Source: Escherichia phage phiHAO78-1
Length of the DNA stretch: 43,930 bases
Sequence record: PP197160.1
Reading direction: 5' to 3' (one strand)
The notes under the pieces were generated by a model. The model did not search any database, was not told where the DNA came from, and saw only the letters and a list, made by a program, of their open reading frames with translations. Positions 37,171-40,273 of this stretch are shown piece by piece; the stretch's first letter is position 1; every line of letters begins with the position of its first letter. The translations under genes and the position numbers were made by a program.

Positions 37171-38182
37171 AACCTCCCCAGTCCTGTATTACTCTAGTAC
37201 CTAGGTCTATCAGCTCATCACGAAATCCGTAATCAGAATACACCATGATGTACTCTGCCGCCCTTGCTGGGTTGTCCAACACCCAGCTAATCAGTTGCTG
37301 CTTAGAAAGTTGTGACACCTCCTTAAACGCTGCTAGTAAATGCGGATCCTCCGTAGGGGGAACATCCAATGGCATCGTTAGGGGATGCGTATAGGCAGAT
37401 AACCACGCATCCGGTTCCACTACTTTAGGATCACGCTCAATCGGTAGGTGCTTGAATGTACCCGGACTAAGTACGTGCTTCAGTACGCTGCCAAGAATGC
37501 TAAGGTCCAGCACCTCATCCGGAGTATGCTCGTGCATGTACCCTACACCTACGTTAGTGCATTCTGGGATAATCTGCATGAACTCAGCGGAGTCCGTGTA
37601 TACCCCTTTCTGTAAGTGCGCATCCGTTCGTCCTAATCGGGCCGCCAGCTCCTTTGCAAACGTATCAGAACAGCAACGTTGGTATCGTTGATGCGTAATG
37701 ATCCCATCTCCACGGCGGTCAAAGCTAATCATTGCCTTGACCCCAGTCCAGAAGCCAGTGTCGTCCTTGGCGGATGCACTGCTGCCTTCACAGCCTACCT
37801 CTTCATCCACGAAGAAGCAGTAACGTCCATGTACTCCCCGCTTAATCATCTCCAGCATCAAGTAGATACCAGCACCACAGTCTGCACCTAGACAATCCGC
37901 CACCTGTGGATTCCGCAGGAACATTACACCCTTGTTAGTGATTGCAATGTCTGGCGCAGCACTACCAGGCCGGGCCACTGTGTCGAGGTGTGATGTAAAC
38001 GCTACATCACTCTGTTCAGAGTAGCCGATAAGCACAAAGTAGTTACCGTGAGCATCCCTAACGTAGTGCTCTGCACCAGCAAGGGCGCTACTAAGTAGCG
38101 GCTCGAACCATTTGGTACTGCCCCAGCTAGGTCGGTGCGTTGTTAGTATCTTTGTCAGTAGTTTAAGGTCAACACCATACAT
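37151..38182 (-). CDS. Putative metallopeptidase-like protein (M20/M28-type signatures)
   Basis: SHLDTV, GADCGAGIY and DEEVGCEGS resemble metal-ligand motifs of M20/M28 zinc peptidases; motif-level only. Confidence 0.4.
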   Translation of the reverse strand: MYGVDLKLLTKILTTHRPSWGSTKWFEPLLSSALAGAEHYVRDAHGNYFVLIGYSEQSDVAFTSHLDTVARPGSAAPDIAITNKGVMFLRNPQVADCLGADCGAGIYLMLEMIKRGVHGRYCFFVDEEVGCEGSSASAKDDTGFWTGVKAMISFDRRGDGIITHQRYQRCCSDTFAKELAARLGRTDAHLQKGVYTDSAEFMQIIPECTNVGVGYMHEHTPDEVLDLSILGSVLKHVLSPGTFKHLPIERDPKVVEPDAWLSAYTHPLTMPLDVPPTEDPHLLAAFKEVSQLSKQQLISWVLDNPARAAEYIMVYSDYGFRDELIDLGTRVIQDWGGYDEITK

Positions 38183-40176
38183 TAAGCTGCCTCCTGTTCT
38201 GCTTTAGCTTCTTTGTCTTCTTCGGCTTCTTCATTACCGAGGTAAGGCTCATCCAATACGGATGCAGCATACTCCGTGAGAATCATACCGTGCACTGGGT
38301 GCTCTTCGGCATGCACACTCAGAACATTGTACCCTTGTGCGCACACTATTGGATCCATATCAAGAACTGTGCCCTCTACAGCACAATGTTCTACGTCAAT
38401 GTCAAGTACCCAAGAGTCATAGTAGTCAGACCACGAGCAATCCCATAATGGGTACACCCGGCCACGCCCCACTACTCGTACGTAAGTCTCACCGATGCAG
38501 TGCGGGCATACATAACCACCGTCACAAGTTATGTACATGTCATCCTCGTCGAAACGTCCCCCACAATCTGCACAAGCACTGCGACCATCATCAATCCAAA
38601 TGTACCCGTTAGCGTCCTGCGCTTCGTAGTCGTAGCAGTCGCAGATAACGAATGCATCCCCGCCCAATTCATCAACCCCGGCTTGGTTCCCATCCAAGTA
38701 TGGCATAAGCACGGCACCTTCATTTTCAGGGTGCGGAATACGCGCCAGTAGTGCGCTATCTAAGCAGTCTGTATCGCGCTCATACCCATTAGCACGTAGA
38801 ATGGCGTCCGCAGCATCCCCGTATGCACGGACGTATTCATTGGTTTCGATGTTAACGACAGCACGGGCGTGCACTTCAAAATCATCACCAAAAAGTTCGC
38901 CAGTATACTGGATGAACAGGCGCAGATTATTGTCCGGCAAGCCGTGACTAGTCGTGGCATATACACGCACCGGGCTAGCCTCGAAGTCGTATCCGGTCAT
39001 GCAGCTACGAGGGCCATTCTCGTACGCATTGTACCACTCCCGCTCGGTCTTACAAAGATATGTAGTAGGCTCCACGTTCATAGCCTTGAGGTCTTCAATA
39101 CATTCCCGGAAGTCTACACCGCTTCCGTAATACTTAGCGAGCCACTTGCCTGCCCGCATCTCTACGCAGCGATACTCAGTAACAGCGGCGTAGTCTTTGT
39201 GCAGTCGTGGCTGCCCCAGCATTACTACAGGCTCACCGTTGCGGAAGCCGAAACCTAGTGGGATTGCAAATTTAGATACTACAAATCCGTGCAACTGCAT
39301 AAGCAAGGTTGCTGCCCAGTAATCCCCATCAATTTTACTGTACTCACGAAGGTATGTGCCCCGGAGGGAGTACGTAGGTGCTAGCATAACCTCTTCGAAC
39401 AACTCTATAGCCTGTTTGTGCACCTTGTATCCGGTAAAGTATTGTACCGCCTCTACCACGCGCTCCGTGACTACATCATCACCATCATAGAAGGTTCTGC
39501 TGTAGACACTGAATGCTTGGTCGCAGGTACCTGCACAGTCAAAGAGCTTATGCAGGAGAGTATCACTAATATCAACCGTGCCCAGCGGCCCAACATACCC
39601 ACCCAAATCCTCTCCTGCAGCTGTAAAGTTGCCGAGTGCTACATGATACCCCGGCAGCACCCTTGACAACATATAAAAGCCACTCAAAAGCGCACGGGTT
39701 TTGTTACTTTGCACGCGCGCACGGCCTTGAGTTGATAGGTAGGGAAGCTGGCACCAGTAATCCCCGGAAGAGTACATACTATCCTTCAGTGGAAGAGCAT
39801 TAGCCCCTTCTGGAAATTTGATGGTCCAACCCTCGTAGGCAGGTACTTTTACGTCTACAGTTACTTTATTAGTCTCTTGCATTTTCTTTGTCTCCGGTGT
39901 TATTAGTATCTCGTCATGCATTAAAAGTTCAGCGTGCATACCACGCAGAGAGTTGTCGCTGCTTGTAGTAGGAGCGGATGGCTCTTCTAAATTGCGTGTA
40001 AGCTCCGCGATACCCGTACTTCCGTAGCGCTGCAACCACATCAAATGCGATATGCTCTTGTAGTTTCCGCGCGGCAGACTCTGTATACTCTCGATAGGTT
40101 GTGAGCACAGTGCCAACACCCTCTCTTCTAACGCGGAGTAGTCTACGTTCAACGGGTACAATTCCTTTGAGTTCAT
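38182..40176 (-). CDS. Large hypothetical protein (664 aa) with C-terminal Cys-rich putative zinc-binding region and acidic tail
   Basis: Long ORF with AGAGG 6 nt upstream of the ATG at 40174..40176; C-terminal CDCYDYE...CADCGG...CDGGYVCPHC cluster. The N-terminal 248 bp overlaps ORF 39929..40273 in another frame, so the true start may be downstream (candidate ATGs at 39937..39939, 39919..39921, about 39879). Confidence 0.6.
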   Translation of the reverse strand: MNSKELYPLNVDYSALEERVLALCSQPIESIQSLPRGNYKSISHLMWLQRYGSTGIAELTRNLEEPSAPTTSSDNSLRGMHAELLMHDEILITPETKKMQETNKVTVDVKVPAYEGWTIKFPEGANALPLKDSMYSSGDYWCQLPYLSTQGRARVQSNKTRALLSGFYMLSRVLPGYHVALGNFTAAGEDLGGYVGPLGTVDISDTLLHKLFDCAGTCDQAFSVYSRTFYDGDDVVTERVVEAVQYFTGYKVHKQAIELFEEVMLAPTYSLRGTYLREYSKIDGDYWAATLLMQLHGFVVSKFAIPLGFGFRNGEPVVMLGQPRLHKDYAAVTEYRCVEMRAGKWLAKYYGSGVDFRECIEDLKAMNVEPTTYLCKTEREWYNAYENGPRSCMTGYDFEASPVRVYATTSHGLPDNNLRLFIQYTGELFGDDFEVHARAVVNIETNEYVRAYGDAADAILRANGYERDTDCLDSALLARIPHPENEGAVLMPYLDGNQAGVDELGGDAFVICDCYDYEAQDANGYIWIDDGRSACADCGGRFDEDDMYITCDGGYVCPHCIGETYVRVVGRGRVYPLWDCSWSDYYDSWVLDIDVEHCAVEGTVLDMDPIVCAQGYNVLSVHAEEHPVHGMILTEYAASVLDEPYLGNEEAEEDKEAKAEQEAA

Positions 40177-40273
40177 TAGGTACCTCTTTGAATATTTCCC
40201 ACGGGCACCCGCACTTGCCCTGCGTTTCTAGCAATCGCCAGCACAGTAGCGCTGTTTCGTCTACTGTAAGCAT
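39929..40273 (-). CDS. Hypothetical Arg-rich protein (114 aa); conflicts with the 5' end of the 664-aa ORF
   Basis: AAGGA 8 nt upstream of the ATG and start directly after the upstream gene's stop (TAAGTATG), but it overlaps 38182..40176 by 248 bp in a different frame. Confidence 0.35.
   Translation of the reverse strand: MLTVDETALLCWRLLETQGKCGCPWEIFKEVPNELKGIVPVERRLLRVRREGVGTVLTTYREYTESAARKLQEHIAFDVVAALRKYGYRGAYTQFRRAIRSYYKQRQLSAWYAR

Follow-up and report, generated by a model that had tools for sequence, protein, structure and literature searches.

Evidence for an overprinted gene pair with two probable in-frame starts in the Drulisvirus phage phiHAO78-1

Overprinted genes are known from small viruses, for example A/B/K and D/E of phiX174, and N-terminal extensions of proteins can arise by a shift to an upstream start codon. 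In-frame dual-start genes are also known in phages, for example gene 4A/4B of T7 and S107/S105 of lambda. Here we describe a minus-strand locus of Escherichia phage phiHAO78-1 (record PP197160.1; we call the whole stretch that we analysed, 43,930 nucleotides (nt), the window). In this locus a long open reading frame (ORF) of 664 amino acids (aa), which we call ORF-L, starts inside a conserved 114-aa gene, ORF114, and overlaps it on the same strand in another frame. From comparisons with relatives we think that the two are an overprinted pair, that ORF-L probably has two starts, and that its body is an enzyme-like protein working with a hydrolase encoded next to it. We hold this explanation as a whole with reasonable confidence and the gene architecture, which we read from comparative sequence patterns, with rather more; the transferase-plus-hydrolase mechanism is inferred and tentative. 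Overprinting and dual-start genes are known kinds, and the present instance is undescribed in the literature that we searched: we found no characterised homologue and no described overlap in Drulisvirus, and the only specific paper was a toxicity and proteomics study of phage fHe-Kpn01 (PMC7291057).

Two overlapping frames and their conservation

Judged by its relatives Klebsiella phage KPV811 and Escherichia phage Minorna (both Drulisvirus), the phiHAO78-1 genome belongs to Drulisvirus (a KP34-like podophage; Autographiviridae, Slopekvirinae). The 2,092-nt region under study is 93% identical to KPV811 and 91% identical to Minorna. Its genes, on the minus strand, belong to the early/middle part of the genome; they precede the primase and helicase genes and are away from the structural block. 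An earlier reading made from the letters alone (the sequence-only reading) had reported the two ORFs with 248 nt shared in different frames, had called ORF-L the largest ORF with neither a structural nor a replication role, and had seen plausible ribosome-binding sites at both starts. The ORF list confirms the first two points, and there are Shine-Dalgarno (SD)-like sequences before both starts (AAGGA before ORF114, and GAGG 6 nt before the ORF-L ATG). The features that the argument needs first are these:

38182..40176, minus strand: ORF-L, long form (664 aa), with its ATG at 40176 (ORF list)
39929..40273, minus strand: ORF114 (114 aa, ATG start), conserved (ORF list, codon-position pattern, homologues)
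39929..40176, minus strand: dual-coding overlap of 248 nt, with ORF-L codons 1-83 in the +1 frame of ORF114 codons 33-114
40183..40186, minus strand: GAGG, SD sequence of the upstream start, within the ORF114 codons K-E-V
40174..40176, minus strand: ATG of M1, spanning the ORF114 codons Asn/Asp-Glu (AAT or GAT, then GAA)

Codon position 1 of ORF-L is codon position 2 of ORF114, that is, ORF-L is in the +1 frame. We chose ORF114 as the query for collecting loci because it is better conserved than ORF-L, and this gave 60 distinct sequences (57 loci in viral contigs); ORF-L as the query gave 6 loci. These 60 relatives are the sample for the counts below except where another is named.

For the stop test, we looked at ORF114 codons with a synonymous alternative that puts a stop into the ORF-L frame, and we compared how many such choices were expected and how many were observed. 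In the overlap 219.4 stop-making choices were expected and 3 were observed, a depletion of about 70-fold. Both controls had a ratio of 1.0: upstream of the ORF-L ATG (ORF114 codons 1-32) we expected 81.4 and observed 81, and in ORF-L downstream of M99, an internal methionine discussed in the next section, we expected 1554 and observed 1596. As the controls are at expectation, the depletion belongs to the overlap alone and does not come from a bias of the sequence in general. Across the overlap, 57 of the 60 relatives have no stop in the ORF-L frame. When ORF114 was recoded synonymously with the codon usage of the genome, the ORF-L frame was stop-free in about 0.5% of trials (mean 3.8 stops), and in the same relative frame of the genome's own long genes 6 of 113 non-overlapping 82-codon windows were stop-free (mean 3.7 stops). 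We had considered that the long frame is open by chance; the stop depletion with its controls led us to reject this.

Avoidance is complete already at the first danger sites (ORF114 codons 35, 38 and 41, from 3 codons past the ATG), and the nearest in-frame stop upstream of the ORF-L ATG is 18-29 codons away. Together these two observations favor 40176 over M46 and M80 as the site of initiation, and they are evidence against a frameshift out of ORF114. Variation at the danger sites is present but limited to permitted codons (GTT/GTC, ATC/ATT, CTC/CTT), and GTA is present at one danger site only where the next base is T. By parsimony on a neighbour-joining tree, the 11 danger sites have undergone at least 50 independent third-position changes, of which 3 were stop-making, all singletons; the binomial probability of so few stop-making changes is 4e-6 at a one-third rate and 6e-3 at a one-fifth rate. 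From this pattern of codon choice we conclude that the ORF-L frame is kept stop-free by selection through the overlap.

The signals of the upstream start are also held in place. All 60 relatives have the ATG (as AATG or GATG, and never with AAC or GAC), and the T is fixed there even though Asn codons genome-wide are 151 AAT versus 227 AAC. The SD sequence is GAGG in 57 and GGGG in 3 (ORF114 codon GAG versus GGG), and its Lys codon is AAA in all 60, though AAG is commoner genome-wide. While these flanking synonymous sites (AAA and NAT) are invariant, the third positions of the adjacent Val and Pro codons vary freely.

ORF114 carries the signature of purifying selection. Heterozygosity in the overlap is 0.18, 0.13 and 0.35 at its three codon positions (in 16, then in 60 distinct Drulisvirus sequences), and its most variable third position is the second position of ORF-L. 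Amino-acid identity in the overlap averages 0.83 over sequence pairs when read in the ORF114 frame versus 0.62 in the ORF-L frame, and ORF114 is intact in all 60 relatives. A tblastn search found the ORF114 family in 317 phage records; ORF-L was found in about 245. In most Drulisvirus ORF114 is 80-95% identical versus 56-60% for ORF-L in those phages, and homologues with 26-47% identity occur in Bucovirus, Koutsourovirus, Phimunavirus and Maculvirus, which makes five genera in all with Drulisvirus. They include Enterobacter phage phiKDA1, Pectobacterium phages, Shigella phage Buco and Vibrio phage KF2. The homologue in phiKDA1 has no adjoining large gene, and in Koot and KF2 the large gene follows the ORF114 homologue without overlap. 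Because of its codon signature and its homologues in phages without the overlap, we conclude on comparative grounds that ORF114 is a real gene and the older of the two.

The sequence-only reading had left three options, that one ORF is spurious, that the large gene starts downstream, or that this is a genuine overprinted pair, and it had proposed to look at the conservation of each frame across relatives. With ORF114 under purifying selection and the ORF-L frame depleted of stops, the first option is rejected. The third is supported, since both frames are open, the stop depletion has its controls, and the upstream ATG and SD sequence are conserved. The second is taken up in the next section.

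ORF114 has a full-length match to PHROG 6167 (E = 6.5e-54), and ORF-L has a full-length match to PHROG 6980 (E = 0), with PHROG 13313 also named; all are families of unknown function. A homologue search with ORF114 returned only close 114-aa relatives, searches of Pfam, NCBIfam, PADLOC and PDB sequences returned only sub-threshold zinc-ribbon or helix-turn-helix (HTH)-like noise, and a profile from the family alignment had no match in the PDB. As a separate observation, ORF114 codons 1-32 (40177..40273, minus strand), which do not overlap ORF-L, have a synonymous-site variability of 0.21 versus 0.30-0.35 elsewhere, and the protein is near-invariant there. This low variability reaches beyond the embedded ORF-L SD sequence and ATG.

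The same architecture is present in four distant genomes, Shigella phage Buco (Bucovirus) and three metagenomic loci (L085, L086 and L088; these are our labels). All four share the start site, the +1 frame and an overlap of 242-248 nt with 0 stops in each. In Buco the ORF114 homologue is gp8 (42% identical) and the annotated overlap is 8 nt only; the frame of the large gene is open for 78 codons beyond its annotated start, up to an ATG at the homologous Pro-Asp-Glu-Leu-Lys site, which has AGGAG before it and the same 'MNS' start. This stretch is about 50% identical in nucleotides to the window and has 0 stops versus 4.7 expected, with a probability of being open of 0.009. In L085, L086 and L088 the ORF114 homologues are 47%, 46% and 75% identical, and the same probabilities are 0.019, 0.066 and 0.0008. 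Upstream of the ATG stops occur at the expected rate in all four genomes, and Buco, L085 and L086 have an equivalent of M99 in the context K/P-M-Q/C-(L)-E-I/T-N. Judging from this distribution, the overlap architecture is old.

The leader, the internal start and competing readings

Three further features concern the N-terminus of ORF-L:

39883..40176, minus strand: 98-codon leader, Ser-rich, unconstrained and predicted disordered (AlphaFold confidence, codon-position pattern, composition)
39892..39895, minus strand: GGAG, SD sequence of M99 at -13 to -10, conserved in an otherwise neutral stretch
39880..39882, minus strand: ATG of M99, start of the candidate 566-aa form (AAAATG in 59 of 59 sequences), where coding constraint begins

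Ser makes up 18% of residues 1-82, and the predicted local distance difference test score (pLDDT) of the AlphaFold model is below 50 across most of residues 1-103, so that the leader is predicted to be disordered. Over residues 1-82 variability is greatest at ORF-L codon position 2. Past the ORF114 stop, over residues 84-98, variability is even at the three positions (0.28, 0.25, 0.29), and from residue 99 onward the usual pattern sets in (about 0.14, 0.13, 0.30).

The sequence-only reading had named the region from about 39939 to 39879 for a downstream start, and the candidates there exist: M80 at 39939, M86 at 39921 and M99 at 39882. M99 is the one with conserved signals. The three G's of its GGAG are invariant in 59 of 59 sequences and the A is kept in 58. 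One of these G's stands at a third codon position where the amino acid is variously P, Q, R, K, L or E, and a third-base G that stays fixed while the amino acid changes argues for selection on the SD sequence at the nucleotide level. We conclude from these patterns that M99 is a real start, at which the conserved protein begins. The suggestion that the large gene starts downstream was thus right about a start, since M99 with its conserved GGAG begins the conserved protein, but not as a replacement for the upstream one, whose ATG is also conserved and whose frame is selected to stay open. With conserved signals at M99 besides those at 40176, the most likely reading of the locus is that it has two starts in one frame, which would probably yield one isoform of 664 aa and another of 566 aa.

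In the explanation that we favor, initiation at 40176 inside ORF114, in its +1 frame, would give the 98-residue leader with its first 83 codons overprinted, and initiation at M99 (39882), just past the ORF114 stop, would give the 566-aa form. The leader itself may be a disordered appendage or an expression device.

Several observations count against the leader, and we weigh them here together. The synonymous sites of ORF114 have a variability of 0.25-0.36 in the overlap versus about 0.30 for ordinary third positions, and the leader is without amino-acid constraint. In the 60 sequences we did not see the reduced synonymous variability of ORF114 in the overlap that would be a sign of constraint on the leader sequence. 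As the synonymous sites are as variable as elsewhere, selection appears to act on openness and not on the leader sequence. The leader contains a stop in 4 of the 60 genomes, at residue 76 (L038), 47 (L040), 9 (L072) and 95 (L063). Unless these are sequencing errors, the long form is dispensable in some phages and those genomes must use a downstream start; they retain M99 and its SD sequence. In the one proteomics study that we found, on fHe-Kpn01, the database searched starts g12 at the equivalent of M99 (PMC7291057). Phimunavirus and Vibrio-type phages carry the three genes of the locus (ORF114, the large gene and the gene that follows it) without any overlap.

Annotation of the locus is divided. 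Both overlapping ORFs are annotated in Minorna, KpV48 and KMI6, and the long ORF only in KPV811, JKT1 and NTUH-K2044-K1-1. The large gene is annotated from the equivalent of M80 in VLCpiA1f, of M99 in P7285, B1 and fHe-Kpn01, of M46 in F19, and from about codon 34 in VLCpiA1k. In the GenBank records of Drulisvirus there are at least five different starts for it (M1, about M34, M46, M80 and M99), and ORF114 is absent from several. Gene calls in protein databases are divided between versions of about 664 aa and of 562-586 aa, and the entries of PHROG 6980/13313 and 6167 are silent on the overlap and the start sites. We recommend keeping both genes, annotating the long ORF from the upstream ATG, and flagging M99 as an alternative start.

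The alternative that survives best is that the leader is translated but its peptide has no function, so that the upstream start delivers ribosomes to ORF-L from a strong SD sequence within ORF114, or tunes the ratio of ORF114 to ORF-L, and the frame would need only to be open. Selection on openness and start signals rather than on leader sequence is what this would produce, as is a leader that is predicted to be disordered and can carry a stop in genomes that keep M99 and its SD sequence. Three points make it doubtful, although we regard it as a possibility to be taken seriously: M99 already has a conserved SD sequence, which makes a delivery device seem redundant; the extension is similar in length (78-98 codons) in five lineages; and one locus has kept its leader open across a 43-codon insertion. 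In this locus (L067, IMGVR_UViG_2974579119_000001) the insertion, of about 43 codons between the ORF114 stop and M99, is part of the 3' end of ORF114 in a second, diverged copy, which has stops in the ORF114 frame and an open ORF-L frame throughout.

It is also conceivable that ORF-L is translated only from M99 or M80, and that the upstream 98 codons are untranslated and open by chance or by hitch-hiking on ORF114. The unconstrained and predicted disordered leader, the SD sequence of M99, the leader stops in 4 of the 60 relatives, the choice of M80 or M99 by many GenBank annotators and gene callers, and the 5% of 82-codon windows in the genome that are open in that frame by chance would all fit. 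We nevertheless consider it improbable, as it leaves unaccounted for a depletion of stops that is limited to the overlap, the avoidance of stops through at least 50 independent synonymous changes, an upstream ATG and SD sequence held at synonymous sites, and four distant genomes that look alike, three of them with ORF114 homologues only 42-47% identical.

We believe that a programmed +1 frameshift, which would fuse the ORF114 N-terminus to ORF-L, is very unlikely. ORF-L is in the right frame on the same strand and that frame is open across the whole overlap, but stop avoidance starts within 3 codons of the conserved ATG, upstream of which stops occur at the expected rate with the nearest 18-29 codons away, and an SD sequence and ATG conserved at synonymous sites indicate a need for independent initiation and not for a frameshift. 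That ORF114 is spurious and only the 664-aa gene is real can be dismissed for practical purposes: ORF114 is omitted from the KPV811, NTUH-K2044-K1-1 and JKT1 records and from the gene calls of L085 and L086, but the codon-position pattern and the higher amino-acid identity (83% versus 62%) in the overlap follow its frame, and it has full-length homologues without the overlap, in phiKDA1 even without the large gene.

The body of ORF-L and its metallohydrolase partner

Downstream of the leader we distinguish the following parts of ORF-L, together with the next gene:

39277..39867, minus strand: N-terminal folded domain, about residues 104-300, variable between genera (AlphaFold2 model)
38617..39276, minus strand: conserved core, about residues 301-520, with invariant C392, R438 and D495 and a weakly GNAT-like predicted fold
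38488..38583, minus strand: putative four-Cys zinc ribbon, C535, C538, C557 and C560 (family conservation)
38185..38487, minus strand: beta-rich C-terminal domain (residues 564-640) and acidic tail (641-664) (predicted secondary structure and sequence)
37151..38182, minus strand: partner gene, a predicted M20/M28-type (MH clan) metallohydrolase of 343 aa, whose start overlaps the ORF-L stop by 1 nt

An exhaustive HMMER search gave 426 cluster representatives at E <= 0.001, most of which share only residues of about 335-575 with ORF-L. Only residues from about 290 on align with the Buco, Vibrio and metagenome homologues, and Koot gp35 is a remote homologue (hhalign 99.1%, E 1.6e-18). In an alignment of 149 members C392, R438 and D495 are invariant, and G343, Y385, S391, M393, Y406, Y452, L460, G464, P492, Y493 and G524 are near-invariant. 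Within Drulisvirus the amino-acid heterozygosity is 0.04-0.14 in the core (residues 301-500) versus 0.19-0.35 in the N-terminal domain. The AlphaFold2 model of ORF-L has a pLDDT of 79.9 and a predicted template modelling score of 0.71, with an alpha/beta core (pLDDT 94.3), a C-terminal region that contains Cys residues and is rich in beta structure, and an acidic tail that is helical. Given this conservation, the body of ORF-L is most likely an enzyme.

The sequence-only reading had noticed a C-terminal cluster of Cys motifs and an acidic tail and had guessed at a zinc-binding domain. The motifs are present, as C512-x-C514 (CDC), C535-x-x-C538 (CADC) and C557-x-x-C560 (CPHC), with the acidic tail at residues 641-664. 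The guess holds for the CADC and CPHC motifs, whose four Cys residues are each conserved in at least 90% of the 149 family sequences and would form the ribbon, but not for the CDC motif. We ruled out CDC as part of a conserved metal site, as neither it nor C551 is conserved in the family. Zinc-ribbon profiles scored below their cut-offs (Zn_ribbon_8 13.7 bits against 34.4, TIGR02605 13.0 bits against 31.3); the sub-threshold matches to Zn_ribbon_8 and FmdB are weak, as are the Foldseek matches to LIM domains.

Remote homology search and structure prediction, which had been proposed as a check, did not find a family of known function. Pfam, NCBIfam, PADLOC and PDB sequences gave only sub-threshold zinc-ribbon or HTH-like noise for ORF-L, the family-alignment profile had no match in the PDB, and no Pfam match recurred among 40 distant members, whether the limit on E was 0.01 or 10. 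The junction predicted between beta4 and alpha3 of the core reads R450-A-Y-G453-D-A455; across the family the consensus there is YVRxYGD, and conservation does not extend to the final position of the motif. Against a GNAT-type reading of the core stand the lack of a match of any Pfam GNAT model (acetyltransferase, FemAB, ATE) to the 40 members at E up to 10, the lack of a predicted helix at the GNAT alpha4 position, and a Foldseek search of the full model against the PDB without a match at E < 0.1 (the best were PatZ and LIM double zinc fingers). We take the modelled core to have either a GNAT-like fold that has diverged very far or a new fold of similar appearance, and we do not file it as a member of the GNAT family.

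The partner gene has a Pfam match to Peptidase_M28 just above threshold and keeps the HxD, GAD, EE, D and H motifs when aligned with Peptidase T (PepT). Its homologue in fHe-Kpn01 has a 99.8% HHpred match to DapE (PMC7291057). A homologue of the partner (36-60% identity, E 1e-40 to 1e-155) is directly downstream of the ORF-L-family gene in 7 of 7 contexts examined with BLASTP (Buco, Koot, KF2 and four distant metagenomic contigs), and four further loci have a gene of like size and position there, one with a Peptidase_M28 match. An ORF114-family gene precedes the pair of large gene and peptidase in Drulisvirus, Bucovirus, Phimunavirus and Maculvirus.

We propose, tentatively, that the core is an acyl- or aminoacyl-transferase-type enzyme using Cys392, Arg438 and Asp495, followed by the zinc ribbon, and that the variable N-terminal domain may recognise the target. 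The body would work with the translationally coupled M20/M28 di-zinc hydrolase, and the two would form an early/middle two-enzyme module acting on one host or phage substrate. A more specific version, which we regard as speculative and unlikely as stated, is a three-gene early module of phiKMV-like podophages (ORF114, ORF-L and the hydrolase) in which a diverged GNAT-fold transferase and a di-zinc amidohydrolase remodel one host target, and in which the leader isoform differs in target, localisation or timing. The target of the module might be, for example, protein N-termini, cell-wall precursors or a nucleotide-linked metabolite, on which residues or acyl groups would be added and trimmed.

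A different account of the body is that ORF-L and the peptidase are particle-associated proteins, packaged or ejected, and that the GNAT-like resemblance is coincidental. The homologues of both (g12 and g13) were flagged as particle-associated by liquid chromatography-tandem mass spectrometry on purified fHe-Kpn01 particles (PMC7291057, Table S2), and the fold similarity is weak. However, 29 of the 56 gene products were detected in those particles (PMC7291057), which is far above the virion content of a podovirus and makes carry-over likely, so that detection is not proof of a virion location. The position of the genes upstream of the primase and helicase genes and away from the structural block also argues against this account, and the invariant Cys, Arg and Asp with the intact metal ligands of the partner point to catalysis. 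We consider it a little less probable still than the three-gene version. The ORF114 homologue in fHe-Kpn01 was neither detected in particles nor toxic in E. coli (PMC7291057).

The sequence-only reading had placed ORF-L in a region where host-takeover or anti-defense functions are typical. Such a role would fit a gene that precedes the primase and helicase genes. PADLOC gave 0 matches of the proteins to defence models, and among anti-defence Pfam families there was one weak match, to Tad6, in 1 of 40 ORF-L family members.

We also made some observations on the neighbourhood. Directly upstream of ORF114 is a 67-aa ORF (40276..40479, minus strand) that belongs to PHROG 7916 and is 50% identical (E 3e-14) to g10 of fHe-Kpn01, whose 69-aa product is experimentally toxic to E. 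coli (PMC7291057). The peptidase gene shares 20 nt at its 3' end with an HNH homing-endonuclease-like ORF of 155 aa (36703..37170, minus strand; PF13392, PF05551 and a C-terminal HTH). This ORF is placed between the peptidase and the primase block, and Minorna and KPV811 have an ORF of the same size there. At another locus (L083, 7132..7928) a distant pair of ORF-L and peptidase genes is near a DUF2201 gene (PF13203/PF09967), and the four related loci L085-L088 share a small DUF7267 gene, placed a few genes upstream of the module. The G+C content is 0.41-0.44 over the first 2 kb of the window (where a 644-aa ORF is at 193..2127) and 0.46 at 30-31 kb, and about 0.51 in the remainder; these local drops may reflect, for example, mosaic acquisition.

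Comparison with known systems

The predicted order of ORF-L residues 371-512 resembles beta1-alpha1-alpha2-beta2-beta3-beta4-alpha3-beta5...beta6-beta7 of the GNAT-fold transferases (acetyltransferases, FemA/FemX, ATE1 and N-myristoyltransferase), and its R-x-x-G-x-A is at the beta4-alpha3 junction where GNATs carry Q/R-x-x-G-x-G/A. In addition to the missing Pfam match and alpha4 helix, ORF-L differs from GNATs in an extra three-stranded N-terminal subdomain, in an invariant Cys-Arg-Asp that is not the usual GNAT catalytic set, and in the zinc ribbon fused to the core. The partner has the HxD, GAD, EE, D and H motifs in common with PepT and DapE of the MH clan; unlike them it is short (343 aa), phage-specific and directly after an ORF-L-family gene. 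The ORF-L family has at least 426 uncharacterised proteins and matched no sequence-based family of known function. Its putative active site is strictly conserved and its neighbour is a metallohydrolase gene, and we believe that the two proteins are a tractable candidate for a new enzyme pair in Klebsiella and E. coli phages that are used in therapy.

Like T7 4A/4B and lambda S107/S105, ORF-L has two in-frame starts, each with its own SD sequence, and is predicted to give a long and a short isoform. The extra N-terminal part of T7 gp4 is a conserved and functional zinc-binding domain without any overlap, whereas the extension of ORF-L is unconstrained, predicted disordered and inside the upstream gene.

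As in overprinted genes, one stretch of DNA here carries two frames on the same strand, the older of which is under purifying selection, and the newer frame is compositionally biased, predicted disordered and fast-evolving, and is recognisable by stop depletion and a conserved start. Unlike in those genes, overprinting is limited to the N-terminal leader of a large and otherwise ordinary gene, the new frame has no detectable amino-acid constraint, and a second, non-overlapping start is retained. The setting also differs from that of the small viruses, as this is a double-stranded DNA podophage of 44 kb, and about 250 nt is an unusual length for a same-strand overlap in such phages. What sets the locus apart is the length of such an overlap in a phage of this kind together with what appears to be selection for openness only. 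One would expect this stage of an overprinted segment that is young or under little functional demand, and yet here the segment persists across genera whose ORF114 proteins are only 42-47% identical.

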